NCBI GenBank assembly: GCA_965215565.1
Contig: CBDCDZ010000004.1
Location: 32,001 to 96,000 of the forward strand
DNA length: 64,000 nt
Origin: Trueperaceae bacterium
GTDB taxonomy: Bacteria; Deinococcota; Deinococci; Deinococcales; Trueperaceae
Reading direction: 5' to 3'
Below, one piece after another: positions 14,071 through 33,100 of the stretch (positions are counted from its first letter, which is position 1; each line of letters starts with the position of its first letter). The translations under genes were made by a program, and so were the position numbers. The notes under the pieces were generated by a model. That model saw nothing but the letters and a program-made list of their open reading frames with translations, ran no database searches and was not told the DNA's origin.

Positions 14071-14133
14071 ACCTTATCTCAGACCGAGGGGTGCCGCGTG
14101 CACTCCTCAGAAACCCAACGACCTAACTCTTGA

Positions 14134-15022: not shown

Positions 15023-17915
15023 AACCAACGATGGAACCGTCACGGTAGAGGGTGCGGGTAAGAAAACTATCGCACTTTTTGTGGGCGAGCCAACGGACAT
15101 CCCCGCAATCACTCTTACCACTCCAGCGGACGGCGCAACCCTCTCGGGCGAGAGCGTGGACGTCTTCTGGGACATCACGCTCAAAGAGTCCGATGATCAC
15201 GTTCACGTCTATGTGGACGGCGAAAAGAGAGAGGGCTCGGTTGACTATAAAAACCCCTACACGCTCGACTTTGCGGATAAGAATATCGAACCGGGTCAGC
15301 ATGTGCTCGAGGTGCGCGTCTCAGATAAAGACCACAACGAATACACCAACCCAGCCGCCTCGGACAGCATTACCTTCACGCTCCAAGCGCCTACGTCGGT
15401 CAGCGACGTGCTCTACCGCGTGAACGCGGGCGGCCCTCAACTTGCTGCCAGCGATGATGGTCCAGACTGGGGTGCAGACACCGGTCAGTTCGGTAACGCG
15501 GGCAACAGCCCCTACCTCGTCGCCCATAGCACCGGTAGCTCGACCTATAATGGCAACTCGGGCAGCGCACATCCTGGCGCAATCGACACGTCCGACGCCA
15601 GCATCCCGACTGGTACGCCCACCGTGATATTTAATACCGAGCGCTACGATACAAGCGCAGCGCCGGAGATGCAGTGGGAATTTCCCGTCACCGCTGGAAC
15701 AACCATTGAGGTGCGCCTCTACTTCGCCGAACTCTTCAGCGGAGTGGACGCCGCCGGTGAGCGCGTCTTCGACGTCGAGGTTGAAGGAAGCGTCCCCTCC
15801 GTTTTCGGTGACATCGATCCTTTTGCTGTCGCCGGAGCTAAAGGTGCCTTTATACGCTCGCATACGCTTACGGTGACGGACGGAACTTTGGACATCGACT
15901 TCTTGCACGGCGTTGAAAACCCCGCCATCAAGGGCATTGAAATCATCGCCAGTAACGGCACTAGCAACGTGCCGCCGCAAGTCGATTCTATCGCTAACAT
16001 AACGAGCGCCGAAGGAGACGCGGCGAGCGACTACGACATCAGCATTGCAGCGACTGACCCGGACGGCCCTGGAAACCTCGAGTACAGCGCCACCGGACTG
16101 CCACCCGGCGTCGAGGTCGAGATGACGAACGGTCAACTCTTCGGGACGATTGCTGCGGGGGCCGCCGACAACAGCCCCTACGACGTGACGGTCAGCGTCA
16201 GCGACGGTGCGGACACCACGAGCGTCAACTTCACCTGGACGGTGACGGCGGAAACAGGTGGCGGCAACCCGTCCGCGACAATCAAGGTCACTTCGAATGC
16301 CGGTCTCTTCGCGAGCACCTTCGGCAACGACTCGTTCCAAATCAGCAACACGGGCGACAGCGACATCGAGCGCATCACCATCGACTCGAGCAGCACGTTC
16401 TTACCCGACGTCGTCTTCGACCCGGTGGGCAAAGCGGGCGACAGCGGCGCGAAGTGCCTCACAGCGGGTACAACGGGCAACACCGCCGCTCAGGTCGGTC
16501 TTATCTATCCGGCGAACGGCGGAAGCGACGCCGCTGACTGCGTCGATCCCTTCGATCAGCCTCATAACGGTACAAACGACGAGGAAGGCTACGACAAGCT
16601 CGACCTCATCTTTACGAACGGCGACGGCTTTAACCCCGGCGAGTCCTTCGCCTTCGGCGTGGACATGGACCCCACCAGCATCAAGGGCGACCAGAGCACG
16701 GGTGATGCGGGCTCCATATCCGGTTTTGAGCTGGTCGGTGCAACCGTGACGGTTGAATTTGCGGACGGTACGCTAACCTCGAGCCTCTGGGAAGACGGCA
16801 GTCTAGGCGGTTCGCAAGTGGTCGTCCAGCCCGGTGCGCCTACTGCGCCAAGTATCAGCGTGAGCGGTGTGTCGGCTCCCACTACAGTCACCGATGCAAA
16901 CCAGACCATCACCATCAGCGGTCCTGCGGACGCCACCGTCGCGCTGTTACGCGCTGACGCCCGTCTCTACATCGACGCAGGTGCACCAGGGGGCGGCACA
17001 GGCCATGACGTTGACCCCTTCGAAGCCAACGAAGTGCTCGCCAAAGAGGTCTACACCACGACGCTTGACGGCAGTGGTAGCGGCAGTATCAACGTCACGC
17101 TGACTCAAACCTCTTCGCTTAATGCTGGGCCCGACGCTGGAATCAACCACTTCATCGCGGTAGTCGAAGGGTCAGGAGAGCAGACCAGTCTGACCTCGAA
17201 CGTGATCGTTTTGGGCTACGCGCCAGATGACGGCGGTAATAGTGGCGGCGGGACAGGCTCGAGCGGCGCGTTTATTGAGCAAAACGGCCTCGTCGTCACC
17301 GAGATGGAATCCACCTCTAGCTTGCCTGGTAGTTGGAAGTCCGCCACTACCTATTCCGCCAGCACCTCGCCTGACATCAGTAATCTGGGCAGCGCGACGG
17401 GTGGAGACTTCATCGTTTGGCAGGGCGGACAGTTTTTGGGTAGTCCCGGCAATGGCTCGATTAGCTATCCAGTCAAGATCAATGCGCCGGGTACGTATAG
17501 GTTTCAGTGGCGTAGTCAGGTTGGTAACGGCTCAAACTCAACAGAGCACAACGACACCTGGCTTAAAATCGAGGCGGACAGCTTCTATGGTCAGAAGAAT
17601 TCAGGTATCGTCTGCCCGAAGGGTTACACTTCCGCCGAGAACGACTGCACCGGCAGCGTCCCCGAAGGTGGTGGTGGCGGCGGCTGGTTTAAGATTTATT
17701 CCAGTGGCACGGCGAACTGGACGTGGTCGACGAATACGAGCGACAACGACGCGCACCAAATCTTCGCTCGCTTCGACCAGGCAGGGGTATACAACATCCT
17801 CATTTCGGCTCGCTCTTCTTCGCATGTGATTGACCGCATGGTGCTCTACAATAGCTCCGTAAGTACGAGTGCAGCAACGAACATCAACAACCCCGAGTCA
17901 CCCCGCGAACAGTAA
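14145..17915 (+). CDS. About 1256-aa lipoprotein: cohesin-like, dockerin, Ig, malectin, He_PIG-like Ig and C-terminal beta-sandwich
   Basis: N-terminus is the same as 8206..14070 (true start ATG 14145 after AAGGAAGG). VLYRVNAGG..LYFAELF..RVFDVEVEG malectin; YSATGLPPG Ig. The STFGNDSF..DMDPTS domain is shared with the upstream paralog. Confidence 0.88.
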   Translation: MNRHLLFILSMSLLVLLAACGRGGPRGDYLAVAFEVPANTVALEADISYDPEQLELLGAASAHKGVLAAAGTDRGQLKLNAVATDLTPKGRDFALVSFKIKQPGAKPEVKLLRAYNAQKEELDTPRSSMRRTERDLAADYDPEAQAQRTLNPQADSSDLDLQASFADYPLGDLDQSSAVNVFDVIDVIAVSLGSASSATDYQLYVGDLTANGAVDLFDVISVVEKSVNVNAPASLVVRPDVLELATGESGLILVGNAGNLPLNATLSSSTDAAISKLNNEVAGQTAAYEVVAGTNDGTVTVEGAGKKTIALFVGEPTDIPAITLTTPADGATLSGESVDVFWDITLKESDDHVHVYVDGEKREGSVDYKNPYTLDFADKNIEPGQHVLEVRVSDKDHNEYTNPAASDSITFTLQAPTSVSDVLYRVNAGGPQLAASDDGPDWGADTGQFGNAGNSPYLVAHSTGSSTYNGNSGSAHPGAIDTSDASIPTGTPTVIFNTERYDTSAAPEMQWEFPVTAGTTIEVRLYFAELFSGVDAAGERVFDVEVEGSVPSVFGDIDPFAVAGAKGAFIRSHTLTVTDGTLDIDFLHGVENPAIKGIEIIASNGTSNVPPQVDSIANITSAEGDAASDYDISIAATDPDGPGNLEYSATGLPPGVEVEMTNGQLFGTIAAGAADNSPYDVTVSVSDGADTTSVNFTWTVTAETGGGNPSATIKVTSNAGLFASTFGNDSFQISNTGDSDIERITIDSSSTFLPDVVFDPVGKAGDSGAKCLTAGTTGNTAAQVGLIYPANGGSDAADCVDPFDQPHNGTNDEEGYDKLDLIFTNGDGFNPGESFAFGVDMDPTSIKGDQSTGDAGSISGFELVGATVTVEFADGTLTSSLWEDGSLGGSQVVVQPGAPTAPSISVSGVSAPTTVTDANQTITISGPADATVALLRADARLYIDAGAPGGGTGHDVDPFEANEVLAKEVYTTTLDGSGSGSINVTLTQTSSLNAGPDAGINHFIAVVEGSGEQTSLTSNVIVLGYAPDDGGNSGGGTGSSGAFIEQNGLVVTEMESTSSLPGSWKSATTYSASTSPDISNLGSATGGDFIVWQGGQFLGSPGNGSISYPVKINAPGTYRFQWRSQVGNGSNSTEHNDTWLKIEADSFYGQKNSGIVCPKGYTSAENDCTGSVPEGGGGGGWFKIYSSGTANWTWSTNTSDNDAHQIFARFDQAGVYNILISARSSSHVIDRMVLYNSSVSTSAATNINNPESPREQ

Positions 17916-17933
17916 AACGCCCCATAAACTCTT

Positions 17934-17968
17934 ACCTCTCTCCCCGTAAGGAGAGAGGTGTCTTTTTG
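17934..17968 (+). terminator. Intrinsic terminator of the lipoprotein operon
   Basis: ACCTCTCTCC-ccgtaa-GGAGAGAGGT followed by gtcttttt. Confidence 0.8.
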
Positions 17969-18329
17969 TACGCGGATGCAGGCTGTGACCTCTGCGCGTG
18001 AAGCGACTTTAGCAAACTATAGCAAGTATCATTTGGTTTGAGCCAGTCTCACATTAGAGAACTTGAGCGAACACGCGCATTCTTAAATGATGCTTGCGCT
18101 ATTCCAATTCAGTACTTCTGTGAACTGCTTTATTACACCAAACTGAAAGATTCACGTCACGTTCAATAGCTCACCGAGTTGCGAGATACCGAAGTGCCAC
18201 CAAGGGAAGTTAGTCATGAGTTCTGAGCGCTCTTTGTTGTTGGTGAATTGCTCGAGCGCTTGTCTGTGTCGAAGCGCCCGACAACTCGCAGAAGAGTTGT
18301 TTGGACAGTTCTGAAACCCTGAGCGAAGG

Positions 18330-18552
18330 GTGGCACCACCTCGCGGCGACCTATGACGGCAAGAGCCTGCGCGTCTACAAGAGCCTGCGCGTCTACGTCG
18401 ACGGAGAATTGAGCGGCGAGCGTGAGGTAGAGCCCACCGGCATTTCCTAGTGCGCCTTCGAGCTCTTTATCGGTACCGATTAGTATGCTCCTGAGCCTCT
18501 CTATACGGAGGGCGTCATTGACGAATTGCGGATTTACGACCAGGTGCCGAGC
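18330..18552 (+). pseudogene. LamG/ConA-like domain remnant
   Basis: WHHLAATYDGKSLRVY(KSLRVY)VDGEL..FIGTD*..GVIDELRIYDQ, with stops, a frameshift and an 18-nt tandem duplication. Confidence 0.8.
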
Positions 18553-18569
18553 CTCGGCGCTCAGGACGG

Positions 18570-18900
18570 TTTGGGAAGGGGACCAATCACCAGCGGCGTC
18601 TCCCTAGACGGGCGCTACGGCCTCATTATCTGCCGCGACTCGTCGTAGCTGTCAGTCGTCAACACGCAGAGTCTCTCCGCCGTTGAAAGCGTCAAATTCC
18701 CGGCGGGCAGCAGCCCGCTCACCGGCACCTTCGCCTATAGCGGAGCGGGCGAGACCTTCTTCGTCCCGCTACCGGGGCGGGACGCCGTAGCCGCGGTGAA
18801 GGTGCCGACCTTTGAGACAGAGCTCATCCCGGTCGGCGCGCGCCCCATGAGCGCGGTGTATTCCGAGGCGCCGCTGCCCGACCGGCAGACAAGCTTCGCG
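18570..18900 (+). pseudogene. YVTN/YncE-like beta-propeller remnant
   Basis: SLDGRYGLIICRDSS*LSVVNTQSL..GRDAVAAVKVPTFETELIPVGARPM with an in-frame stop. Confidence 0.55.
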
Positions 18901-19013
18901 CCGCGAGGGGTGGCGCTAGCAGCAGGTCGCACTTTTCCCGCGGGCTGTCCTGACCGCTGCTGTGGTCCTCTTTGAGACAACCGTAGATCGAGAGAGTCTT
19001 GTGTCGCCAAGGC

Positions 19014-19043
19014 AACGCGAGAGTTGCGCGCAACTCTCGCGTT
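19014..19043. repeat. Perfect 30-bp palindrome, REP-like
   Basis: AACGCGAGAGTTGCG|CGCAACTCTCGCGTT; related partial copies near 915, 2451 and 3801. Confidence 0.75.
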
Positions 19044-19220
19044 AGAGCTTATGCAAACTTCGGCCCGTAGTCATGCATAAGAATTTTGCGAATCCGAGGT
19101 AGGAAGCGATTAAAGAACTAGATACCTCACTGCAACTTATTCGATATAAACCGCCAATGATCGAAAGTGGAATTTATCCCATATCGTGAGCGGTCCCGAT
19201 CAAACAGGACTTAGTTTTCT

Positions 19221-20657
19221 CTAGCCCCTTAGAAGTTCTGCTAGATAGCGCGTCACGCCCAAGGCGAGGCTCGGAAAGATGCCAATGAGCAGGGTGCCTA
19301 AGACGCTCAGACTGAGCGAAATGACGTAGCTCGGTCGGTTGGGTAGACTCACCTTGACCTCGGGCTCTTTGAGGTACATCTCCACAACAGGCACAAGGTA
19401 GTAGTAGAGCGCTAGCGCGAAGTTTATTGCCGCGATGACAACGAGCCATACGAGCCCGTCCGAGAGCGTCGCTTCTAAAAGTAGCACCTTGCCCGCAAAA
19501 CCCGCTAGAGGTGGAACACCTGCGAGTGACAGCAACGATAGCGTGAGTGCAGCAGCGGCAAAGGGGGAGCGCTGCCCAAGCCCTCTCAGTCCATTGATGT
19601 GGTCGGTGCCGGTCAAGCGCTCTAACTGCGCCACCACCACGAACGCCCCCAAGTTCATAAAAAGGTACGCCGCTAAGTAGTAGCCCGTCGCGTCGAAGGC
19701 ACTCTCAACTCGCCCGGCAACGGCTACCGCCATCAGCACGTAGCCCGCTTGAGCGATGCTCGAGTACGCTAAGAGCTTCTTGAGCCGTGTCTGCCGCAAC
19801 GCTGCGAAATTCCCCAGGGTCATGGTTAGAGCCGCGAAAATAGCAACAGTGAGAGGCCACGCCGCCATACCATCTGGTAGAGCTAAGAGCAAAAAGCGCA
19901 GAAAGGCTGCGAATCCAGCGATCTTCGGTACGACGGAAAGAAAGCCCGCCACAGGCGCGGTCGTACCGCTGTACACATCAGGAGCCCAAAAGTGAAAAGG
20001 CACAATGGTGATTTCGAAGGCGTAGCCAATTAGGATCATGCCGAAGGCGACGGCAACCCAAAGCCTATCCGCACTACCTAAAGCCTGCCCAATAGTGCGC
20101 AGTTCCAAACTCCCCGTCAGCCCGTAGAGAAAGGTCAAGCCGTAGGCCATGACTGCCAATGCGACAGCGGCGTAGATGAAGTACTTGATGGTCGCCTCGT
20201 TCGTGCGGCGGTCTTTGCGGATGAGCGTCACAAGGATGTAGGACGCTAAGCTAAGCATCTGGAAGAAGAGGACGATGAGCCCCAGGTCGAGAGCTGAGCT
20301 AACCAGCATCGCTCCCAGGGTCGAGAAGAGCAGCGCAATGGCGGCGTGCCCCTCTTTGCCCGTATCGCGAAAATGTCCGTTGATGGCTAAAAGCGATAGG
20401 AACGAACCTAGTAAGATGAGCAACTTGAAAACGTTGCCGAAGCCGTCAAGTGCGTAGGTTTCACAGAAGACCGTCTGAGATTCCCAGGGAAGCATCCGCA
20501 CCGTAAACGCCATGGCTATTAAAAGCCCAAACGCCGCCACCCATACCGGGAGTTGCTGCCAACGTCCCTTTGCTAAGCCGGCGACGGGCACGAGCACCAA
20601 GCCTAACCCCGCTACGATAAGCTCGGGGATAATCGCCCACAGTTGAACGCAGCTCAC
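19221..20657 (-). CDS. nuoN: NuoN-like antiporter-type membrane subunit
   Basis: EATIKYF, VPFHFWAPDVY, KKLLAYSSIAQAGY and SLAGVPPLAGFAGK. Confidence 0.9.
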   Translation of the reverse strand: MSCVQLWAIIPELIVAGLGLVLVPVAGLAKGRWQQLPVWVAAFGLLIAMAFTVRMLPWESQTVFCETYALDGFGNVFKLLILLGSFLSLLAINGHFRDTGKEGHAAIALLFSTLGAMLVSSALDLGLIVLFFQMLSLASYILVTLIRKDRRTNEATIKYFIYAAVALAVMAYGLTFLYGLTGSLELRTIGQALGSADRLWVAVAFGMILIGYAFEITIVPFHFWAPDVYSGTTAPVAGFLSVVPKIAGFAAFLRFLLLALPDGMAAWPLTVAIFAALTMTLGNFAALRQTRLKKLLAYSSIAQAGYVLMAVAVAGRVESAFDATGYYLAAYLFMNLGAFVVVAQLERLTGTDHINGLRGLGQRSPFAAAALTLSLLSLAGVPPLAGFAGKVLLLEATLSDGLVWLVVIAAINFALALYYYLVPVVEMYLKEPEVKVSLPNRPSYVISLSLSVLGTLLIGIFPSLALGVTRYLAELLRG

Positions 20658-20658
20658 G

Positions 20659-22149
20659 CTAATCGCCCAGTTGCGCTAGGAACGCCGTCGCCCGCTCGAT
20701 GACGGCGAGAAACGGTCCCGGCACGATGCCGATGGCGAGCGAGAGGGCGGCTAAGGGGATGATGGAACTCGCCTCGAGCGGCTCCAACTCCCCCACCTCC
20801 GGCATATCTTCAGGCGGCTGTCCCATCAGCAAGAGGTTTAAGACCTTCAAATAGAGCCCCGTTGTGACGATGAGCCCAAACAAGGCGAGCACCGCCAACC
20901 ACGGGCTCACCGCGAGCGTCGCGCCTAAAACTTGAAACTCCGCGACGAAGCCTGACAGAGCAGGCAACCCGAGCGAGCCGAACGCCAAGAGCCCCAACAG
21001 TCCGCTGTAAAGAGGTGCACGTCCTAAGAGCCCGCCGAACCGCGCCATCTCCCGCGTGCCGGTGTGATGCTGGAGTACGCCCGCGAGAAAGAACATCCCG
21101 CCCGTCAAGAGCCCGTGGCTGACCATCTGCAAGACCGCACCATTGAGGGCGAGTTGCTTCACGCCTGTGTCAGAAGAGAGCCCCCATACCGCTACACCTA
21201 ACATCACGTAGCCCATGTGATTGACCGACGTATAGGCGATGAGCCGCTTGAGGTCGCGCTGCGGCAAAGCGGCGAGCGCACCGTAGACGAGTGACACGAG
21301 CGCCAAGACCATCAAGAGCCAAGCGTACTCTTGCACTACTCCCGGCAGCGTCGGGATGAGCACACGCAAGAGACCATACGCGCCCATCTTGAGCTGAATC
21401 CCGGCTAGCATCACGCTCCCCTCGGTAGGCGCTTCGACGTGGGCGTCAGGGAGCCAGTTGTGTAGAGGCACGGTGGGTAGCTTGACGCCGAAACCGAGGA
21501 GCAACCCTAAGAGCACCCAGAAGCCCGCCGCCTGCCCTACAAAAGGTTGCGCGGCTGTAATCGCTGATAGCGAAAAGCTGCGCGTCCCTACCGAATCGCC
21601 CGTCGCGAGGTAGAGCGCCAAGAAGCTCAGCAACATCGCCAAACTGCCTGCACGGGTATAGAGAAAGAACTTCAAGGCGGCGTAGCGGCGGTTCTCGCCG
21701 CCCCAGATGCCGACGATAAAGTACATCGGCACGAGCCCGACCTCGAAGAAGAGGTAGAAGAGCAGGAGGTCTTGCGCAGCGAAGAGTCCTAAAAGACCCG
21801 TCGCCATCAGCAAAAACAAGAAGGCGTGCTCTTTCGCCCGTTCGCGTTTGGGGAGGACGTAGAGCATCGAGAGGCTGAGTAAAAGTGCGGTCAGGACGAT
21901 GAGGGGCAGTGAAAGCCCGTCCACCGCCACGTCGTAGCTCGAGCCAATACTAGGAATCCAATCCGCGACGGTGCGCCACTGCAAGCGTGAACCTGTCGGA
22001 TCATAGCCGCCCCATAAAATGAGCGTAAAGAGCAGCGTGAGAAGCGAGCCTGCGAGGGCAGCGTAACGGATGAGCTTGGCTTGCGCGTTCGGTATAACCA
22101 GCAGGGCGAGCCCCACGGCAAGCGGTAAAAAGATCGTAATACTTAACAT
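20659..22149 (-). CDS. nuoM: NuoM-like antiporter-type membrane subunit
   Basis: FFEVGLVPMY, AALKFFLYT, KLPTVPLHNWLPDAHVEAPT, LKMGAYG and GFVAEF. Confidence 0.93.
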   Translation of the reverse strand: MLSITIFLPLAVGLALLVIPNAQAKLIRYAALAGSLLTLLFTLILWGGYDPTGSRLQWRTVADWIPSIGSSYDVAVDGLSLPLIVLTALLLSLSMLYVLPKRERAKEHAFLFLLMATGLLGLFAAQDLLLFYLFFEVGLVPMYFIVGIWGGENRRYAALKFFLYTRAGSLAMLLSFLALYLATGDSVGTRSFSLSAITAAQPFVGQAAGFWVLLGLLLGFGVKLPTVPLHNWLPDAHVEAPTEGSVMLAGIQLKMGAYGLLRVLIPTLPGVVQEYAWLLMVLALVSLVYGALAALPQRDLKRLIAYTSVNHMGYVMLGVAVWGLSSDTGVKQLALNGAVLQMVSHGLLTGGMFFLAGVLQHHTGTREMARFGGLLGRAPLYSGLLGLLAFGSLGLPALSGFVAEFQVLGATLAVSPWLAVLALFGLIVTTGLYLKVLNLLLMGQPPEDMPEVGELEPLEASSIIPLAALSLAIGIVPGPFLAVIERATAFLAQLGD

Positions 22150-22168
22150 AGAACTCCTAACACAGCGT

Positions 22169-24112
22169 TCAGAACCATAAAAGCGCCCCGGCGAGGATGA
22201 CTGCGCCTGTCCAGATAAAGAGGATCAAGGTGTAAATGTAGAGCTTGCCACTCTGCGCCGCGCGTAAGTACTCGCTCGAGCGCCCTAACAGGCGGGCGAA
22301 GGCGTCGCCCCCTCTTGAGAAACCGACACGTTCCGCTTGGTCGGTGCGGTTGGCTAAGTTGAGTGTTAGTGTCGCCCCTGCCCGAGCGCTCTTGTCGAAG
22401 ATTGTCTCGAGCCCGTCCAACGCTCGCCCGCTACGTTGAGCCGTATCAGCAAGGTGGCGTACAGCAATGTCGAACCCCTGCTCGGCAGCATCAACCGCTG
22501 AAGCGATTCGCTCAGCAGCGAGAGCGGGAGCCCGCGTCACCCGCTCTAATCCTTCTGCGAGCGAAACAGGACCCGTCCCAAAGGTCGGCACGGGTCCAGC
22601 CTGCCATACGCGCCACGCGCCTAGCATCAACCCCGCGAAGCTCGCCGCAACCGCCCAAAGCGTCCAAGCGGCGGACACGTGCGGCGCACCTTCAAAGGGC
22701 AAAAAGGCTTCTAACCGCCCCGAAAGCGCCCATCCCAGTCCAAGCGCAAAAAGTGCCGTCGTGAGCATCCCTGCCTTCATGCGCCAGCCGACCTCTTCCG
22801 CAGTAACCTCATAGGTGTCCTGAGTCGTATCCCGCCACGCCGCAAACGACGCCATCCCCGCGCGGCTGATGTAGACGCCCGCTAGAAAGATGAGGAACAC
22901 GAGCAGTGCGCCGAGGAAGGGGCTAGCAGAAGCAGCTTGAGCTAAAATTGCCTCTTCACTCCAAAAAGCTGAAAAGGGGGGTAAACCCGCCAGCGTGAGC
23001 GCCGCCGCGCCGAACGCGAAGGTCGTATAGGGCAACTGCCGAAACAAGCCGCCCATCTTGCGTAAGTCGTAGCTGCCGACCGCGTGCCCTACCGCGCCTG
23101 CTGCCAGAAAGAGTGTCGCCTTAAATGCCGCGTGCGTGGTGAGGTGAAAGGCTGCGGCGGTTGCGCCGCTCACGCCCAGCGCCAGCATCATCTCACCGAG
23201 TTGCGAGACCGTAGACCACGCCAAAACGCGCTTGAGGTCGGTCTCAGTGGTGGCGATAAGGGCGGCGATGAGGGCGGTGAGCACCCCTACTATTAGGATG
23301 ACGGTGAGTGCCCCCGGCGCAGCCTCGAAAAGCGGGAAGAGCCGGAGCAAGAGGTACACGCCCGCTGCAACCATCGTCGCAGAGTGAATGAGCGCCGAGA
23401 CGGGCGTCGGTCCCGCCATTGCGTCAGGGAGCCAGGCGGTAAGGGGAAGTTGGGCGCTTTTACCGAGTGCGCCTAGCAGCAAGAGGAGGGCGGTAGCGGT
23501 TAAAAAGCTGTCGGGAAGGGTCCCCACCGCACCTAGAATCGCGCCGATGTCGGTGGTGCCTAGCTCGAGCAATAGCCACAACCACCCGAGCAAGAGCCCC
23601 AAGTCTCCTATCCGCGTCATCAAAAACGCCTTACGCGCCGCCTTGCGGGAGTCCTCTTTGCTGTACCAAAAGCCGATGAGCCCATACGACGCCAGCCCGA
23701 CCCCCTCCCACGCGGCGAAGAGCAGCACAAGCGAACCGCTCAGCACGAGCGTCAGCATCGTGCCGACGAAAAAGGATAAGAGGGCAAAGAAGCGAGGTTT
23801 GCTCTTCTCTTCAGCCATATAGCCCACCACGTACACGCCAACGAGAAAACTCACGCTCGAGACCACGAGCGCCAAGAGGTATGAGAGCGGGTCTAGGGTT
23901 AAACCGGCGGTGAGGGTGAAGGAGCCGGTCTCGAGCCATGTACCACTCACGCTCAACCTTTGTCCAGTCAAAATGAGGATGAGTAGAAGGCTCAAGCCAC
24001 TTGCACCCGCGCTTAGCCACGCACCTTTCGTGGGGAGCTTAGAGCCGAAGAACAGGATGACGAACGCTGCAAAGAGAGGTGCAAACGGCACGGCAAAGAG
24101 AAGCACGCTCAT
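22169..24112 (-). CDS. nuoL: NuoL-like antiporter-type membrane subunit with a long C-terminal amphipathic helix
   Basis: WEGVGLASYGLIGFW, KSAQLPLTAWLPDAMAGPTPVSALIHSATMV and QSGKLYIY. Start ATG 24112 overlaps the nuoK stop (ATGA). Confidence 0.93.
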   Translation of the reverse strand: MSVLLFAVPFAPLFAAFVILFFGSKLPTKGAWLSAGASGLSLLLILILTGQRLSVSGTWLETGSFTLTAGLTLDPLSYLLALVVSSVSFLVGVYVVGYMAEEKSKPRFFALLSFFVGTMLTLVLSGSLVLLFAAWEGVGLASYGLIGFWYSKEDSRKAARKAFLMTRIGDLGLLLGWLWLLLELGTTDIGAILGAVGTLPDSFLTATALLLLLGALGKSAQLPLTAWLPDAMAGPTPVSALIHSATMVAAGVYLLLRLFPLFEAAPGALTVILIVGVLTALIAALIATTETDLKRVLAWSTVSQLGEMMLALGVSGATAAAFHLTTHAAFKATLFLAAGAVGHAVGSYDLRKMGGLFRQLPYTTFAFGAAALTLAGLPPFSAFWSEEAILAQAASASPFLGALLVFLIFLAGVYISRAGMASFAAWRDTTQDTYEVTAEEVGWRMKAGMLTTALFALGLGWALSGRLEAFLPFEGAPHVSAAWTLWAVAASFAGLMLGAWRVWQAGPVPTFGTGPVSLAEGLERVTRAPALAAERIASAVDAAEQGFDIAVRHLADTAQRSGRALDGLETIFDKSARAGATLTLNLANRTDQAERVGFSRGGDAFARLLGRSSEYLRAAQSGKLYIYTLILFIWTGAVILAGALLWF

Positions 24113-24420
24113 CCTTTCAGCTCCGTGAACTGGTCCACTTGCTGCGTACCCTGGTTGCGGTAGAGCAGCATCATGATGGCGAGTCCGATTGCCATCTCGA
24201 CCGCGCCCAGCGTCACGATGATGATGAGGAAAATTTGCGCCGAGTAGTCGCCGGGCTGCACGAAGCGCCAAAACGCGACGATGTTGAGCCCGATGGCGTT
24301 AAGCAAAACTTCGATGCCCATGAGGATCATCACCGCCGAGCGTTGCGCGACGACGGCGTAGATGCCGATGCCGAAGAGGATGGCGGCGACAACTAAAAAG
24401 GCGCTGAGGGGGATGATCAT
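24109..24420 (-). CDS. nuoK: NuoK-like subunit
   Basis: GIEVLLNA and GAVEMAIGLA retain both conserved glutamates. Confidence 0.92.
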   Translation of the reverse strand: MIIPLSAFLVVAAILFGIGIYAVVAQRSAVMILMGIEVLLNAIGLNIVAFWRFVQPGDYSAQIFLIIIVTLGAVEMAIGLAIMMLLYRNQGTQQVDQFTELKG

Positions 24421-25307
24421 TCGGAGACCTCTTTACTCGAGCTTTCTGCTCCCATCAAAGGGACTAACCTGTCATCCTCAAGCTCCGTAGGGTTTTCATC
24501 CAGCCCCACATACGCCTCGCGGTTTTTAGGTGAGGGGTGGCAGTCAGGTCGGGCGATATAAACCGCGCCGAAGATGCCCACTAGAATAAGCAACCCTGCC
24601 CCTTCGAACGCCATCATGTACTTACCCATCAATAAGCTACCGATTTCGCGTGCCGAGTCGGGGTTGGGCGTCGCATCTACAACAGGCCAAGCGGGGCGGA
24701 AAAGGAGAAGTCCGACGAGCAACACTGACACCGCGATGCCCAATGCGGCGGCGTAAGGACGCACCGGCGTGACCATCGACATATCCATATCCCCGTGGTC
24801 CATGTCGCCGTGATCCATCTCGCTATGGTCCATCTCCCCGTCGTCCATATCATTGTGCGCATCTTCGTTTTCACTATCACTACCACTACTTTCGGCATGA
24901 CTCATCTCATGATGTTGATGTTCATCTTGTTCCTGGTCTTCACCGAGCGACTTCACCTCCTCTGCTTGGACCTCTTCTTTATCTTTAGGCAGTAACCCCA
25001 AACTGAAGAACTTCTCAACAAGAGGCAAATCCATCCCCGCCATCATGTCCCCGCCGGGGTCGTGCGAGAAGAGCGCCATGAAGAGGATCATCACCAGCAT
25101 CCCGCCGATGTACATCATCACTTGGAGGAGCCCTAAGAGGTCCGCCGATAAGAGGATGAAGAGCCCCGACACGCCGATAAAGGAGCCCATCAGGAAGATG
25201 CCACTCCTATACATGCTCATCGTCGTCGCCATGCCGAGTGCACCCAGAATCGCGATGAGCGACAACAGGGTGAAGGCTAAAATCTGTGCAAGAGGTCCTA
25301 AAATCAT
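24417..25307 (-). CDS. nuoJ: NuoJ-like subunit with a large acidic His/Met-rich insertion
   Basis: LQVMMYIGGMLVMILF (TM3) and IGSLLMGKYMMAFEGAGLLILVGIFGA. Insert EHQHHEMSH..MDHSEMDHGDMDHGDMDMSM. Confidence 0.88.
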   Translation of the reverse strand: MILGPLAQILAFTLLSLIAILGALGMATTMSMYRSGIFLMGSFIGVSGLFILLSADLLGLLQVMMYIGGMLVMILFMALFSHDPGGDMMAGMDLPLVEKFFSLGLLPKDKEEVQAEEVKSLGEDQEQDEHQHHEMSHAESSGSDSENEDAHNDMDDGEMDHSEMDHGDMDHGDMDMSMVTPVRPYAAALGIAVSVLLVGLLLFRPAWPVVDATPNPDSAREIGSLLMGKYMMAFEGAGLLILVGIFGAVYIARPDCHPSPKNREAYVGLDENPTELEDDRLVPLMGAESSSKEVSE

Positions 25308-25320
25308 GCTTTCGTCTCCA

Positions 25321-26220
25321 TCATTGCCCTACCCCTAAAAGAATGAGCGCCCCGACGATGAGCACGTTGACCAAGCCGACGGGCGTCAGAATGCGCCAGG
25401 AGAGCTTGAGCATCTGCGCGGTAGAAAGAGGTTGCACACGCCGCCCGAGCCAGAGCATGAACGCCATCAGGCCAAACGTTTTGAGGAGCATCCACACAGG
25501 TGCGGGGAGCCACGGTCCGTGCCAGCCGCCCAGGTAGAGCACCGCGCCCATCGCCGCGACGACGAAGAGCAGCCCCGCCAAAGAGAGCCGCCATATAAAC
25601 GCCTGCCAGCCGCCGACGACGCCTAAGACGCCGTAGTTAAGGTGGCTCGAGAACGGCTCTAAAAAGGGCGCACGGTACGCCTGCATGAGCCCTGTGATGA
25701 CGTAGAGCGCAAAGCCGATAGGCTGCACGACGATGTACCAGATACCTGCTTGATTTTCCACGATAGTGTTCAGCGAGAGCGACCGCGCCATCATGATCGC
25801 GCCCACATACGCGAGCCCGAGCGGGATGACGTAGGAAACGAGCTGCGCGGTGATGCGGTAGTACACGTCCACCGCGTCCCGCACGTTCGCGCCCCAGCCT
25901 GCGATGGCGACACCCAGCACGACGAAGTCCACCACGACGATGAAGTAGAACGCACCGACGCCTATATCCTCCGCGACGAGGTTCGGACCGAACGGGATGA
26001 TGATCGCGGCGGCAGCGACGCCGAACAGCGCCGAGACTGCGCCCGCCGGGTAAAGCCAGCGGTCTTCGCGTAAGAGTTTGATGTCTCTCTCAGCCGGGGG
26101 CGCAGCAGCAGGACCGACCTCTTGCGCGGGGCGGAGCATGACGCGCTCCAAGACCATCGTAAGGACTGCGCCGATAGCGAGGACGCTGAAGGTGAAGAGC
26201 GTGCCCGTCAGTACGCCCAT
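25321..26220 (-). CDS. nuoH: NuoH-like subunit, divergent
   Basis: 8-TM pattern; AQLVSYVIPLGL, SLSLNTIVENQ, VLYLGGW and QMLKLSWRILTP. Start set to ATG 26220. Confidence 0.85.
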   Translation of the reverse strand: MGVLTGTLFTFSVLAIGAVLTMVLERVMLRPAQEVGPAAAPPAERDIKLLREDRWLYPAGAVSALFGVAAAAIIIPFGPNLVAEDIGVGAFYFIVVVDFVVLGVAIAGWGANVRDAVDVYYRITAQLVSYVIPLGLAYVGAIMMARSLSLNTIVENQAGIWYIVVQPIGFALYVITGLMQAYRAPFLEPFSSHLNYGVLGVVGGWQAFIWRLSLAGLLFVVAAMGAVLYLGGWHGPWLPAPVWMLLKTFGLMAFMLWLGRRVQPLSTAQMLKLSWRILTPVGLVNVLIVGALILLGVGQ

Positions 26221-26239
26221 GATTCTACTTCCACAGTAG

Positions 26240-26557
26240 CTACTCCCACTCGAGCCCCCCCATCCCCCAAGCGTAGGCAATGCCAGCTGAGAGAATCGCG
26301 ATAAAGACGAACATGTCCAAAAATGCCGTTAAGCCTTCCTCGGCAAAGACTACCGCCCAGGGATACATGAAGATCATCTCCATATCGAAGGACAGAAAGA
26401 TGAGCGCGTAGATGACGTAGCCGAAGCGGTACGACCCCCACGCGCTAGGCGCTTTAATCAAAGTTGCTTTAGGTCGCCAATAGGCTGCACCTAGAAGTGC
26501 CAAACCAACCACGACCAGTGCGACCAAGCCGACCACGGCGTAACTGCTTAGAATCAT
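26240..26557 (-). CDS. nuoA: NuoA-like subunit, divergent
   Basis: YALIFLSFDMEMIFMYPWAVVF..YAWGMGGLEWE. Confidence 0.88.
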   Translation of the reverse strand: MILSSYAVVGLVALVVVGLALLGAAYWRPKATLIKAPSAWGSYRFGYVIYALIFLSFDMEMIFMYPWAVVFAEEGLTAFLDMFVFIAILSAGIAYAWGMGGLEWE

Positions 26558-27011: not shown

Positions 27012-28163
27012 TCAAGCGTCGCGGGTGGGCAACGTGAACCAGAAGCAGCTTCCCTCACCTGGGGTGCTCTCCGCCCCGATGCGCCCCCCTTGCCGCTGTA
27101 CGTAATGCTTAGCAATCGTCAAGCCGATGCCGCTATTGCTGCCGCCACGTGCTTTATCGGCGCGGTAGAACCGGGTAAAGAGGTGCGGCAAATCTTGCGC
27201 AGCAATACCCTCGCCCGTGTCTGTCACCTTAAAACACACCCCTTTATGCTCCAACGTCGCGCTGAGGCGCACCTCACCCCCGGATGGCGTGTGGCGCAAG
27301 GCGTTGTCGATGAGGTTCGCCAGCACTTGAGCGCTACGTGTCGGGTCGGCACGTACCGTGAGCGCGTCGGGGACATTTTGCGTCGTCAACGTCACCCCCT
27401 TCTGGTCAAACTGCGGGCGAAAGGCGGCTCTCTGTTGCTCGAGGAGACTTCCAACTTGAACCTCGTGCACATTCAACTCGTCCTGTCCACTTTCGACTTT
27501 AGAGAGTAGGGAAATATCCCCGACTAGCCGTTCTAAACGGTTCACCTGTTTCTGGCAGGCGGCTAAGGTCTCAGCGTCCGCTTCGAAGAGCCCGTCCTCC
27601 AAACCTTCCAAGTAGCCGTGCAAGCTGCTCAGTGGCGTCTTGAACTCGTGCGCGACGTTGTTGAGGAGTTCGACGCGGCGCTGCTCGGTCTGTTCCAAGG
27701 AGCCCGCCATCTCGTTGAACGCGCCCGCTAGCGCCCCGATTTCACCCGGATAGTTCGTGCTGAGCCGCTCGTGATACCGCCCCGAGGCGACGCGGCTACT
27801 GGCAGTTTTCATCTTGCGTAGAGGCGAGACGATGAACCAAGTGACGATGAGGCTGACCACGCCCGCGATGATGACCGAGCCGATGATGCCCCAGCGCATC
27901 GCCTGTTCAGCGGCTTCGCGGTAGGAGCGGCGCAAATCGGTCTCCATCGCCACAATTTCAGGGCGTGAGGTGTCGGTCAGCGTGCCGAGTTGCGCCATCA
28001 TGGTCTCGATGTGTTGCTCGAACAAAAGCGGCGCGAACGCCTCGCTCGCCAAGAAAAAGGTCAGGCAGCAAGTCGCGACGACCAAGAGGTAGGAGATGAG
28101 CAATCGCCCGTAGAGGTCGAGGTCGCGCCACTTCAAGCCCCTTATGAAACTAGGTCCTCTCAC
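27012..28163 (-). CDS. HAMP-domain sensor histidine kinase
   Basis: Two TMs, HAMP, H-box VAHEFKTPL, NLIDNALRHT, DTGEGI and GIGLTI. Confidence 0.95.
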   Translation of the reverse strand: MRGPSFIRGLKWRDLDLYGRLLISYLLVVATCCLTFFLASEAFAPLLFEQHIETMMAQLGTLTDTSRPEIVAMETDLRRSYREAAEQAMRWGIIGSVIIAGVVSLIVTWFIVSPLRKMKTASSRVASGRYHERLSTNYPGEIGALAGAFNEMAGSLEQTEQRRVELLNNVAHEFKTPLSSLHGYLEGLEDGLFEADAETLAACQKQVNRLERLVGDISLLSKVESGQDELNVHEVQVGSLLEQQRAAFRPQFDQKGVTLTTQNVPDALTVRADPTRSAQVLANLIDNALRHTPSGGEVRLSATLEHKGVCFKVTDTGEGIAAQDLPHLFTRFYRADKARGGSNSGIGLTIAKHYVQRQGGRIGAESTPGEGSCFWFTLPTRDA

Positions 28164-28864
28164 GGTGTGTCCTCGCTGAATTTATAGCCTACGCCGCGCA
28201 CGGTGAGCAAGTAGGTCGGGCGGTTGGGGCTCTGCTCGAGCTTCTGCCGCAAGTTCGAGACGTGCACGTCCACCACGCGGTCCACGCCTAAAAAATTCTC
28301 ACCCCACACGCGGCTCAAGAGGTCGTTGCGGCGAAAGACGCGCCCCGGCTGCGAAGCGAGCGTCACCAAGAGGTCAAATTCTAAGGTGGTCAGCTCGAGC
28401 GGGTTTCCGTCTAAACGCGCAGTGCGTTTGTCTAGGTCGACTTCTAACGCACCTTGTCGAATGGTCTGACGCACGTCCGCCGACGCTTCACCCCGCCGTA
28501 ACACCGCCTGCACACGGGCGACGAGTTCGCGCGGGGAGAAGGGTTTGGGCACGTAGTCGTCCACACCCGCCGCGAAGCCCGCCAATCGGTCCGGCTCTTC
28601 TCCTTTGGCGGTGAGCATGATGACCGGCGTGGGACGCTCTAAACGCAACCTCTTGAGAAATTCCAACCCGTCCAGATGCGGCAACATCCAGTCCAACACG
28701 ACGAGGCGCGGAGAGAGGGTGAGGGCTTTCTCGAGCCCACTTACCCCATCGGTTGCCACCTCGACGGCGTAACCTTCGCGTCCTAAGTAAGCTTGGACAA
28801 TTTTAACGATGTCGGGGTCATCCTCGACAATGAGGATAGGTGCGGCCTTATTCAAAGGGCTCAT
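28160..28864 (-). CDS. OmpR/PhoB-family response regulator
   Basis: IVEDD, LDWMLP, KPFSPREL, VDVHVSNLRQK and TVRGVGYKF. Confidence 0.96.
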   Translation of the reverse strand: MSPLNKAAPILIVEDDPDIVKIVQAYLGREGYAVEVATDGVSGLEKALTLSPRLVVLDWMLPHLDGLEFLKRLRLERPTPVIMLTAKGEEPDRLAGFAAGVDDYVPKPFSPRELVARVQAVLRRGEASADVRQTIRQGALEVDLDKRTARLDGNPLELTTLEFDLLVTLASQPGRVFRRNDLLSRVWGENFLGVDRVVDVHVSNLRQKLEQSPNRPTYLLTVRGVGYKFSEDTP

Positions 28865-29451: not shown

Positions 29452-29988
29452 CTAGTGGTTGTCGATACCCTCAAACGCCTCCAAGAACGCCCGCATCTCG
29501 GTTTCATTCACCTCTTCGAAGGTCTGCTTGCGCTGCCAGGCGGTAAGGGCATAAGGGGTTTCTAGATCTTGGCGCGGCGCGATAACGGTGCGGCGGTAGC
29601 CCTGGGCGACCTCCTCGAGCCGCTCGATATTGGCTAAATTCTCCTCGTGCGTGCCCATCTTGTACCAAAGGATGACGCCGCCGTCCTCCATGTTGTGCAG
29701 CAAAACCTCGTCCGGGACGACGTAGTCGTAAGAGCCCCAGTCAGCCAAATAGCCGACGTGCCAGCCCGAGGTGGGTGGGTTGCTGTTGTAGGCGGGATGG
29801 TCAGCCGAAGTGTCGGCGATGTGCGTGTTGCCCTGGTCGGCGAAGCGTTCACCAGGCAAGTCGGCGCTTTGCACTCGGTTCATCACGATGAAGCCGACGA
29901 TTAAGAGCACGACACCTCCTGTGATGAGTCCCATGATGAGGTTGAGTCGGTTGTTTGCTGAATTGCGCCTCGTTTGTCTTGTTGCCAT
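29452..29988 (-). CDS. DUF3105-family membrane-anchored protein
   Basis: YNSNPPTSGWH, LLHNMEDGGVILWY and ALTAW. Confidence 0.85.
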   Translation of the reverse strand: MATRQTRRNSANNRLNLIMGLITGGVVLLIVGFIVMNRVQSADLPGERFADQGNTHIADTSADHPAYNSNPPTSGWHVGYLADWGSYDYVVPDEVLLHNMEDGGVILWYKMGTHEENLANIERLEEVAQGYRRTVIAPRQDLETPYALTAWQRKQTFEEVNETEMRAFLEAFEGIDNH

Positions 29989-30072
29989 AAGGGTCCTTCC
30001 TCTTTCGGTGTACGCTGCCTAAACTGTTTAGAAGCAAGGGTGAAGCGTGTCACGTACGCTCTGAAGTATCTC

Positions 30073-30105
30073 AGCGTAGCAGCGGAGTGTAAAGCCCTTA
30101 TAAAG
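30073..30105 (-). promoter_or_regulatory. Putative OmpR-family tandem box plus -10 (copy 2), upstream of the DUF3105-hydrolase-RR-HK operon
   Basis: Minus strand CTTTATA-aggg-CTTTACA-N9-TACGCT. Confidence 0.65.
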
Positions 30106-30171
30106 CTCGAGAGTTTCTGCCCGTTGAGGTGTAGGAGCAGGTATAGTTCTTTTAGAGAGGGAGGTGGGTCG

Positions 30172-33100
30172 TTGGGAGTTGAGGTGCAAGCAAGTGATAA
30201 ATCAGCCCACCGCGTTCTAGCCTATTGGCACGCGAGCCTCGCCGACGCCACCCTGCCGACCTTAGACCCACAAGGAGGGGAAAGTGTCCCATTGGCAGAC
30301 ATAGCGAAAGGCGTGTTACCCAGCGAGGTCACCTCCAAGCTCCGAGGCGCAGAAACCGCAGGAGTGCAAGCTGAGCAAGCGCTGAGCGTTAATATTATCC
30401 CCTTCGTGGCTCGAAAAGCGCAGCGAGGTCGTGCGAGGAGGGATAGGTTCGTCTGTCCTCTCATCATTCCAGCAGAAGTGAACGCTGACGGAGTGCTCCA
30501 GCCACCCTCCGAAGAGGCGCTGCCCTGGATGCCTCGGACCTGGCTCGAGCCCGTTGCCACGAGTGACGTTGTGCTAGGTAATGTGAACGCTTTAGAAGCG
30601 TACCTGACGACACACCTCTTGACCTTGCCGGAGGACACTGGCGAAGCGTGGAAGGCGCTTCTCCTCTACGCTCAGAAGATGTTGGGGTACGTGTCAAAAG
30701 ATACTTGGCGCGCGGCGCTCGAAGACCTCGACTATAAGTTGCTGGACGACGCCTTCATCGTCCAAGAGGGTGAGGTGAAGAGTTTTGGGAGGAATATCAG
30801 CTTGGTTTACGAGCAGCTCGCGAAACGTCGTGAGCTTCCTGGGCTGGTCCAGACCTATACCCGAGCGGCTCCTACCGAACCCGAGCCCCATCTGAAGCCG
30901 GAGGCGTGGCGAGAGCCCGCAAAGCGTCACCTGGGCAGCTTCGGTAATAAAACTGCCTTGTCGCCTTCGCAGCGAGAGTCGCTCCTCCACGCCTTGCAGA
31001 TGCGCTACGCCGAGGTACTCGCCGTGAGCGGTCCACCTGGCACAGGTAAAACCACCCTGATACAGAGCGTTGTTGCGTCCGCGTGGGTAGCGGCGGCGCT
31101 GGAGGAACGAGCCGCGCCCGTCATCGTCGTCACCTCTACTAACAATCAAGCGGTCACGAACGTGCTGGACAGCTTTGCTAAAGCGCGGCAGGTGAAGCGC
31201 TGGCTCCCCGAGCCTGTGACAGGGTTCGGTCTCTACCTCATCAATCAGGGCAACAAACAAAAAGACGCTTTGAGGCGGGGCATCCCGGTTGTCGACAAAA
31301 AGGGTAAAGGGTTCCCTCAGAGCCTCGAGCACGCCGGCTTCTTCCACCCAGCCAAAGCGCATTTCCTGAGCGAGTGTTCGCACTTCTTCGGCAAGGAAGT
31401 GCGAACACTCAGCCAAGCAACTGACCTGCTCCACGCGCAACTTAAATCTTTAGCTGACCGCTTGAATAATGGGGTGGACTGCGCCTACACCCTCGCCAAC
31501 CTTAGAGCCCGCGTAAAGGACTACGGCGAGGGGGCGGGAAAAGACGATCTAAGCGAGCTTGTGAGGGAAGCGCACGCTGCATTTGAGCAGCGTCAGGCGG
31601 AAGTAGAGAGGTTAGAGGGGGTCAAAACGCGGTGGATACAGTACGTCGCCAACGAATCTATCTTCTACAGCCTCTTTCCCGTAAACCTTCTCCTGAGAGA
31701 AAAAAGAATGCGGAAGCGTCAACTCTTCTGGCGCACGCATCTGTTGGAGCGCAGCGAAAGTGACGACCCCAGCGCTGATTTAGAAAAGATGCTCGTTCAG
31801 ATAAGAGCAGAGGCTCTAAAAGCTCAGCAGCAGTTGGAGGAAGCCGAGCGTCTGCTTAGTGCGCTGAGGCGAGCGGAGCAGAACTGGAGGGCGTGGTGCG
31901 ATGAGGTAGGCGCTAACATAGATGTTGGCTCGGACGTTAATTTAGATATTGCGCAGCTTTATATGCTCGAGACAACTGACGGAAAAACAAACGGTGCATG
32001 TCTGCACAACTGGCTAGACACACGCCTACGCTTCGACCTCTTCAACTTGGCGACGCACCTCTTCGAAAGTCGCTGGCTGAGAGAGGTCGAAGAGAGTGAC
32101 CTCTTAGAACCTGACCACAAACCCAGCCGAGCGCGGGGCGCACAGGAGGAGAAGTGGCGGCGTTACGCTATGCTCACCCCTTGCTTTGTGACGACGATAT
32201 ATACAGGACCTGGCTTCTTCGACTACTACACTGGTGAGGCGAGGGCGCTGTTCAACTTTATCGACCTGCTTATTGTAGATGAGGCGGGGCAGGTCGCCCC
32301 CGAAGTGTCGGGGGGCATGATGGCGCTGGCAAAAAAGGCGCTGATCATAGGCGACAGCAAACAGTTAGAGCCCGTTTGGAGCATCGAGGAGAAGGTCGAC
32401 CGGGCGAACTTGAAAAGGCACTGCCTGGCGGATAATGACGAGCGTTTTGAAGCACTAAAAAAGGCGGGTTTTTTGGCGAGTTCTGGGTCCGTAATGCAGC
32501 TCGCGCAGTGCACATCAAAGTATCAGGAACACTCGGTAATAACTCGCGAAAGGGGCATGTTCCTAGCCGAGCATTACCGCTGCGCCCCCAAAATTATCGC
32601 CTACTGTGATGAGTTAGCTTACGCGGGCAAGCTGCGCCCTAAGCGCGACGTGAAGTTGCACCCCTGGACACACTTGGGTTATGTCCATGTCAAAGGGGAG
32701 TCTTTACAAACGGCGGGACGTAGTCGCTACAACAAGCGTGAGGCGAAGACGCTAGTTACGTGGCTCTCCGAAAACCGTGACGCACTCTTAGCACACTACC
32801 AAAAGAACAACTTAAGCGATGTGGTGAGCGTGATTACACCCTTTAAGGCGCAGGCTAGAACTATTATAGAAGCGTTAGCGGAGAACGGCTTAGCGCTCGA
32901 AAAGGTAGGAACAGTTCACACCCTTCAAGGCGCAGAACGACCTTTCGTCCTCTTCTCGCCTGTTTACACCAGCCGCTTTGAAGGAACACCTTTTTTTGAC
33001 CGAGGTGTGAACATGCTCAACGTCGCCGTGTCGCGGGCGCAAGACAGCTTTTTCGTCTTCGGCGACATGGACATCTTCGACCCTGCATTGCAGAGCCCGT

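Follow-up and report, generated by a model that had tools for sequence, protein, structure and literature searches.

A modular, lengthened lateral helix in NuoL of a head-less complex I-like gene cassette from a Trueperaceae bacterium

The nuoL gene and its lateral helix

This study focused on the lateral helix (HL) of NuoL, a pump subunit of complex I, as it is encoded in a 64,000-nucleotide stretch of DNA from a Trueperaceae bacterium (assembly GCA_965215565.1, contig CBDCDZ010000004.1, positions 32,001–96,000), here called the window. The gene belongs to a minus-strand nuoA-H-J-K-L-M-N cluster (19221–26557) that is without nuoB, C, D, E, F, G and I, and is therefore referred to as a head-less cassette. 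An earlier note, made from the letters of the window, had described positions 22247–22552 as coding for a NuoL lateral helix built from four repeated units. On the plus strand the frame is full of stops and none is open; it is the minus strand that codes, and it gives exactly the 102 residues quoted in that note, aa 521–622 of the protein. Since these residues sit between transmembrane helix (TM) 15 (aa 481–505) and TM16 (622–646), the stretch encodes the lateral 'strap' helix HL of NuoL. The gene and the parts of its helix region are as follows.

22169–24112, minus strand: nuoL of the head-less cassette, 647 aa from an ATG (MSVLLF), identified by Pfam, phmmer and Foldseek
22598–22672, minus strand: TM15, aa 481–505, a predicted helix, matched in alignment by TM15 of E. 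coli NuoL and of the canonical NuoL of this genome
22553–22597, minus strand: family-specific Pro/Gly-rich linker GPVPTFGTGPVSLAE, aa 506–520 (MAFFT and structure prediction)
22478–22552, minus strand: HL module 1, aa 521–545, with terminal D541..E544, aligning with the TM15-proximal segment of canonical HL
22403–22477, minus strand: HL module 2, aa 546–570, with G-F-D548...R552 and terminal D566..E569, where the canonical GFD aligns
22325–22402, minus strand: HL module 3, aa 571–596, with I-F-D573...R577 and terminal D591..E594, from residue conservation
22247–22324, minus strand: HL module 4, aa 597–622, GFSRGGD...LR..QSG, equal to the last segment of canonical HL
22175–22246, minus strand: TM16, aa 623–646, KLYIYTLILFIW..., within predicted helix 622–646

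The open reading frame (ORF) as originally listed, which runs up to 24271 from a TTG start, is over-long; the ATG start overlaps the stop of nuoK, and does so in orthologous loci as well. Two Pfam domains were found, Proton_antipo_N (PF00662, 2.7e-14) and Proton_antipo_M (PF00361, 1.5e-71), and phmmer matched the protein to NdhF/NuoL/Nqo12 chains at 1e-88 to 1e-77. Foldseek comparisons with NuoL, NdhF and ND5 chains gave TM-scores of 0.69–0.75 and E values down to 2.7e-29, the latter for chain 8e9g_L (TM-score 0.74). These support the NuoL fold and are silent on the geometry of the strap, the full-length root-mean-square deviation of 15–18 Å reflecting a mismatching C-terminus. An AlphaFold2 (AF2) model of the whole protein has a mean predicted local distance difference test (pLDDT) score of 74, and only its secondary structure was used. 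With Foldseek, it indicates a layout of a 14-TM core, TM15, lateral helix and TM16.

The AF2 helices of the C-terminal region span residues 481–505, 514–569, 577–618 and 622–646, so that a single helix of 56 residues crosses the boundary of modules 1 and 2, and a break occurs at 570–576. The linker adds 14 aa that are absent, by MAFFT, from E. coli NuoL and from the canonical NuoL of the genome; its first residue, G506, is invariant in the family, P509 and G512 are nearly so, and residues 506–513 are non-helical in the model. Module 4 is the best conserved of the four, and phmmer aligned residues 576–643 with 561–622 of M. smegmatis NuoL. The family consensus of TM16, SGKLYLYTLxLFxW, is likewise strongly conserved.

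The periodicity of the helix is clear from several measures. Self-similarity (BLOSUM62) of residues 521–622 peaks at a lag of 25 (z = 4.5, equalled in 0 of 2000 shuffles, best of 40 lags), and the same lag comes top in a profile of 36 same-length homologues (z = 3.7, best of 60 lags). Together with length differences among homologues that come in 25-residue steps, the lag-25 peak bears out the build of four units of 25–26 aa that had been proposed. The recurrence of DxxE at the same place in the first three units was also correctly seen, at D541/E544, D566/E569 and D591/E594. Among 102 homologues with the same helix length (117 aa), to which all counts in this paragraph refer, Glu is found at 544 in 101, at 569 in 101 and at 594 in 100. 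Asp is kept at 548 (95), 573 (87) and 603 (97), Arg at 552 (66) and 577 (57), and L or F occupies 547 in 97 and 572 in 98; in module 4, G597 is kept in 99, F598 in 100 and G622 in all 102. The patch motif can be written as E-x-x-[L/F]-D-x-x-x-R, occurring twice, and then E-x-x-G-F-x-x-x-x-D. The three near-invariant Glu are spaced by exactly 25 residues, giving one acidic patch at each internal module boundary, and since 25 residues make 6.9 helical turns (about seven), every module and its patch would point the same way. The family-averaged hydrophobic moment is 0.28–0.55 with a phase of -30 to -66 degrees across residues 514–590, and the amphipathic phase turns by about 90 degrees at the GFSxGGD kink of module 4. 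The helix is more polar than that of the genome's own canonical NuoL, with a mean Eisenberg hydrophobicity of about 0 to -0.15 per module versus 0.20. Conservation is weak at residues 553–568, and is lowest in the second half of module 2. Tandem Repeats Finder reported no DNA-level repeat at 22100–22700, so the modules are old and diverged, and not an assembly artefact of a recent repeat.

Outside the helix region, E136 of WEGVG and K218 of GKSAQ are invariant in 22 family rows. The TM12 motif carries Glu-Glu where Lys-Asp is usual: at aa 385–387 (22952–22960, minus strand) the cassette protein reads FWSEEAIL, versus FFSKDAIL in the genome's canonical NuoL, and S385 and E386 are nearly invariant in the same rows. 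We take these three motifs to lie in TM5, TM7 and TM12, at the Glu, Lys and Lys of the proton path.

Helix length in canonical NuoL and in the cassette family

From the Gly that follows TM15 to that of the QSG motif, the helix of the window's NuoL spans 117 aa, versus 80 in the canonical NuoL of the same genome. In a canonical-lineage set of 121 proteins (that paralogue and its 120 best homologues) the length is 73–83 aa in 120, with a mode of 77, and phmmer alignment coordinates give about 74 in M. smegmatis and about 73 in T. thermophilus. The remaining canonical-lineage protein, P0188, reaches 123 aa through a Pro/Ala-rich, non-repeat insert directly after TM15. An automatic hydropathy measure, which skips the weakly hydrophobic TM15 (returning 201 for the window protein), was used only as a rough view of other NuoL. 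The excess of 37–44 residues, a ratio of about 1.4–1.6, upholds the claim of the earlier note that the helix is longer than the canonical one, but its estimate of about twice the usual length was too high (117 versus 73–83 aa, roughly 1.5-fold).

Alignment by MAFFT with E. coli and the own canonical NuoL splits this excess into the 14-aa Pro/Gly linker and one 25-aa module, and hhalign of a family profile (22 rows) against a canonical profile (24 rows) gave the same split. Canonical proteins show a 25-aa gap against family rows of 117 aa, and this gap is absent against rows of 92 aa. Three of the four modules have a counterpart in the canonical helix, namely its segment next to TM15, its segment with GFD and its final one, which ends in QxG; the canonical helix therefore comprises about three segments by both methods, not the two assumed in the earlier note, and the window protein has one more. 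D548 is aligned with D542 of E. coli NuoL, whose D563 is one residue off E594. Counted from the aligned sequences, the spacing from the Asp of one acidic patch to the Glu or Asp of the other is 21 in E. coli (D542–D563) and 46 (= 21 + 25) in the window; the family's 92-aa variants (counted in P0007) share the canonical spacing of 21. By alignment, then, the helix is a canonical HL with one 25-aa module and a 14-aa Pro/Gly linker added.

Relatives were collected by a search with the C-terminal 248 residues, which returned 34 proteins, and by a full-length search, which listed 120 more or less complete relatives. A length census was then taken of 142 distinct family sequences, 138 of which are complete in the helix region.

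117 aa: 102 of 138
116 or 118 aa: 7 of 138
92 aa: 7 of 138
142 aa: 12 of 138
139, 160 and 168 aa: one each of 138
113, 115, 124, 125 (three times) and 130 aa: 7 of 138 together

Lengths of 116–118 aa thus make up 109 of the 138, at an identity among homologues of 35–50% in this region. In a core-domain tree of 54 rows, from which four truncated ones were excluded, 117 aa is the deep, ancestral state as well as the dominant one, and 12 length changes were counted. The 92-aa form arose at least four times and the 142-aa form at least six times, always near the tips. In the 19 rows compared, the indels occur anywhere within residues 512–582, with no fixed register, but spare module 4 throughout; the deletions lie at 543–582 and most insertions in or near module 2. 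In one locus (L013) the gain of a module is still visible as a 75-nucleotide tandem repeat with a 90% match. As module number varies (92, 117, 142 and 168 aa) at identical gene content, repeat number does not track the encoded subunits.

Similar events have occurred outside the family. Among 147 further NuoL cluster representatives (the P0279–P0381 list), 20 carry two D..vvD..vN units, spaced by 26 in 19 of them and by 27 in one, a motif distinct from the E-x-x-[L/F]-D-x-x-x-R unit of the cassette; the duplicated unit was found in none of 120 canonical-lineage (Trueperaceae-type) NuoL. Duplications of one helix unit therefore appear to be common.

The head-less cassette and its surroundings

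The other genes of the cassette are as follows.

19221–20657, minus strand: nuoN, 478 aa, Proton_antipo_M 1.9e-62
20659–22149, minus strand: nuoM, the sole M-type gene of the cassette, 496 aa, Proton_antipo_M 1.6e-70
24109–24420, minus strand: nuoK, Pfam Oxidored_q2
24417–25307, minus strand: nuoJ, Pfam Oxidored_q3
25321–26280, minus strand: nuoH, Pfam NADHdh
26240–26557, minus strand: nuoA, Pfam Oxidored_q4

A scan of one genome per species found 22 related loci, and the order A-H-J-K-L-M-N is kept in all 22 as far as the contigs reach. Genes J, K, L and M are present in 22, H in 21 (L015 is cut), A in 20 (L015 and L017 are cut) and N in 21 (L018 is cut). Genes of the quinone module (nuoB, C, D, I) do not accompany the cassette nuoL in the window or in the 22 loci, and no ORF in the up to 10 kb on either side of these loci had a canonical-type subunit, B, C, D and I included, as its best match. 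The window, like each locus whose contig extends far enough, has one M and one N gene, and the statement of the earlier note that only one nuoM is encoded holds for the window and for 22 of 22 related loci.

The loci are scattered over Truepera and other Trueperaceae, Deinococcus marmoris, D. saxicola, Chloroflexota, Alpha-, Beta- and 'Delta'-proteobacteria, Calditrichia, a cyanobacterium and an Actinomycetota metagenome-assembled genome (L031). D. marmoris (L020, L027) and D. saxicola (L021, L028) each have two copies of the cassette on different contigs, and in D. marmoris the two NuoL cores are identical. Among 41 genomes related to that of the window the cassette is present in two, the genome itself (G000) and G002, at 100% identity, while the best named relatives of the canonical paralogue are from Truepera and Trueperaceae. 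The distribution is therefore patchy, and we infer that the cassette moved horizontally.

A full nuoA-N operon, with a NuoL of 661 aa, is found elsewhere in the same genome. In all, G000 has eight Proton_antipo_M genes: three in the cassette, three in the canonical operon and two that are paired and may be Mrp-like, judging from their position and lengths. All such genes in G000, G041 and G044 (eight each) and in G045 (11) stand in positional threes or twos, with no orphan antiporter-like gene among them. A partner pump encoded elsewhere as an orphan Proton_antipo_M gene was accordingly rejected for these four genomes; a canonical NuoM or an MrpD-like protein may still serve as an extra partner.

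Several other features of the cassette and its neighbours were recorded. NuoJ (24417–25307, minus strand) is interrupted, between its two Oxidored_q3 halves, by about 75 residues with a high content of Asp, Glu, His and Met (…DEHQHHEMSH…MDHSEMDHGDMDHGDMDMS…), a composition that presumably resembles metal-binding tracts. Immediately upstream of nuoA (27012–28864, minus strand) are genes for a response regulator of the OmpR type and a HAMP histidine kinase, and such a pair is near the cassette in five other loci. In other loci, neighbours include an HMA-domain P-type ATPase, a CsoR-type metal repressor, DUF305 immediately preceding nuoA and, right behind nuoN, a DUF326 Cys-rich protein (cassette neighbours at 17573–20098 and 5378–5908 in L020, and at 3232–3552 and 13514–13957 in L012). 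These neighbours hint at a link to metal, possibly copper, stress. Three very long ORFs flank the cassette, all on the plus strand: 8206–14070 (1954 aa), 14130–17915 (1261 aa) and 29974–33669 (1231 aa).

Possible roles of the extra module

Like canonical HL (NuoL, Nqo12 or ND5; E. coli 3RKO, T. thermophilus 4HE8, M. smegmatis 8E9G), the helix follows the plan TM15, amphipathic helix, QxG and TM16, with a GFD motif and a Q[ST]G end. It differs in length, in an added module with its own acidic patch, in the 14-aa linker and in being more polar. MrpA offers another comparison: it spans one partner, MrpD, and continues into an MrpB-like domain. The cassette NuoL, unlike MrpA, ends after TM16, and the other subunits are of the Nuo types A, H, J and K. 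What the two share is a bracing amphipathic helix that runs from TMH15 to TMH16, joins the TMH7s and belongs to a complex without a redox arm; HL is described as bracing the complex and linking the TMH7s on the cytoplasmic side (PMC7419157). In Nitrospira, the NuoL of the so-called 2M complex I has a 26-residue HL insertion, proposed to accommodate a fourth pump subunit, according to PMC9040806 (citing Chadwick et al. 2018). A unit of 25 aa, about 37 Å as a helix, matches this insert in size, as the earlier note had anticipated from 2M variants, and both the 2M NuoL and the MrpD2/NuoL of Ca. Manganitrophaceae, as described there, have one extra module of 25–26 residues, about as wide as one antiporter-like subunit (PMC9040806). 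The 25-aa gap found by MAFFT and hhalign agrees with the description of the 2M insert. The cassettes are unlike 2M complex I in that none of the 23 has a second nuoM and there is no Q- or N-module, and in that the module number of their NuoL is polymorphic. There is a parallel in Complex_I_1 and Complex_I_2 of Ca. Manganitrophaceae, in which the insertion occurs in a NuoL whose cluster has a single NuoM (PMC9040806). As a gene set, the cassette resembles the partial nuoAHJKLMN operons of marine actinomycetes, listed as 'marine adaptation genes', in being a membrane-arm-only A-H-J-K-L-M-N copy beside a full nuo operon; those operons, as described, differ in having a hypothetical gene between nuoA and nuoH (PMC6676996). 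A limited literature search found no paper describing this helix family.

The explanation that we tentatively put forward, as a possibility somewhat short of probable, is that the extra module lets the strap reach about 37 Å further and clamp one extra pump-sized unit, e.g., a second copy of NuoM. The acidic patches would be docking sites for successive antiporter-like subunits, and three patches in place of two would set the canonical contacts on the M and N sides further apart, with room for an additional unit about 37 Å wide. Since the cassette has a single M gene and the genome holds no orphan one, this room would be taken by NuoM itself, present twice (L-M-M-N), and gains or losses of modules in 75-nucleotide steps would reset the span. 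The earlier suggestion that the helix could span two more antiporter-like subunits is not supported, as one module and a 14-aa linker were added, not two modules. It could further be speculated, with considerable reserve, that the helix is a molecular ruler on which each 25-residue module with its Glu/Asp patch docks one pump: the single NuoM would be polymerised between NuoL and NuoN to the extent set by the ruler, giving L-M-N, L-M2-N and L-M3-N for helices of 92, 117 and 142 aa, and pump number, and with it ion stoichiometry, would evolve by gain or loss of 75-nucleotide repeats without gene duplication.

Several points weigh against a second NuoM in the complex. A second nuoM gene was found neither in the window nor in the 22 related loci, and to our knowledge there is no complex in which one antiporter-like product occupies two non-equivalent positions of the arm. 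The tip-level changes of module number at unchanged gene content would fit a tolerated change of strap length equally well. The poorly conserved, indel-prone second half of module 2 is unexpected for a segment docked on a conserved subunit, and since pLDDT is below 50 for residues 557–647, the AF2 model shows no geometry. The same insertion in complexes described as having a single NuoM (PMC9040806) makes the insert no reliable counter of M genes. A prediction of a complex of two NuoM copies, from an alignment of 16 rows, gave no answer (score 0.00 against a mark of 0.42, controls not folded) and counts neither for nor against self-association.

A rival reading is also possible, if doubtful, in which three pumps are kept (L-M-N, 1:1:1) and the extra module is surplus strap that kinks, bulges or takes a longer path over the membrane surface. 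Steps of 25 residues would then be seen only because other indels rotate the amphipathic face and TM16, and because repeats slip by whole units. The shared gene content of the 92-, 117- and 142-aa cassettes agrees with this, as do the recent, tip-level gains (at least six) and losses (at least four) of one unit, the 75-nucleotide repeat of L013, the weak conservation and arbitrary indel register of residues 549–580, the AF2 helix break at 570–576 and the insertions in single-M complexes of Ca. Manganitrophaceae (PMC9040806). It is harder to reconcile with a length of exactly 117 aa in 102 of 138 rows despite a regional identity of 35–50%, or with the patch of the supposedly surplus module being as invariant as the others (E569 in 101 and D573 in 87 of 102). 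Moreover, some 37 Å and a linker must go somewhere, and there is no conserved turn motif inside any module.

Alternatively, the strap might run past NuoN and across NuoK, J and A towards NuoH, where TM16 would be anchored, and so brace the proximal part that normally lies under the peripheral arm. The lack of nuoB, C, D, I, E, F and G would leave the proximal arm uncovered on its cytoplasmic face, the lengthening is ancestral and family-wide in a head-less family, and module 4 and TM16 are the most conserved parts yet unlike the canonical ones, which fits a family-specific docking site. The excess of 37–44 residues (55–66 Å as a helix) would also be close to the length of the K/J/A/H part of the arm. 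We nevertheless consider such a brace unlikely. The added module aligns between the canonical GFD patch and the last segment, not after the last segment; a repeated docking motif suggests repeated, like partners, whereas K, J, A and H do not share a single repeated fold; TM16 would end up in the wrong place in one-unit variants; and helices lengthened by 25 or 26 aa are also known from complexes that are not head-less (PMC9040806), with duplicated units of 26–27 aa in 20 of 147 other NuoL. It is very improbable that the four modules fold back into a helical bundle or hairpins, as a small cytoplasmic or surface domain. Their amphipathic composition, rich in Ala, Arg, Glu and Gly with Gly at the boundaries, and the low AF2 confidence would suit a bundle, and when PDB sequences were searched with a profile of the last 170 residues nothing reached significance, the only hits being coiled-coil and helical-repeat designs (best E 0.04, for a designed coiled coil). 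Recurrent changes of a single module, however, would flip the end of a hairpin stack and shift TM16 by the length of a helix. The 56-residue AF2 helix across the first boundary, the continuous amphipathic phase across boundaries (in part a consequence of the 25-residue period) and the homology that the GFD motif and module 4 share with the canonical helix, which is extended, also speak against folding back.

Along the membrane, the pump subunits of complex I are held together by the lateral helix alone, and a 26-residue insert in this helix is currently taken as the signature of a fourth pump subunit. The cassette family shows such an insert as a conserved, quantised module in a gene cluster that never encodes a fourth pump. 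If one pump gene is indeed used more than once per complex, this would be a new way of setting ion stoichiometry; otherwise, the rule that 26 aa equal one more pump would be unsafe for annotating unusual complex I. In either case, the natural series of 92-, 117- and 142-aa helices provides a test set for whether helix modules count pump subunits, and the subunit count would be a first step towards understanding the head-less, complex I-like module.

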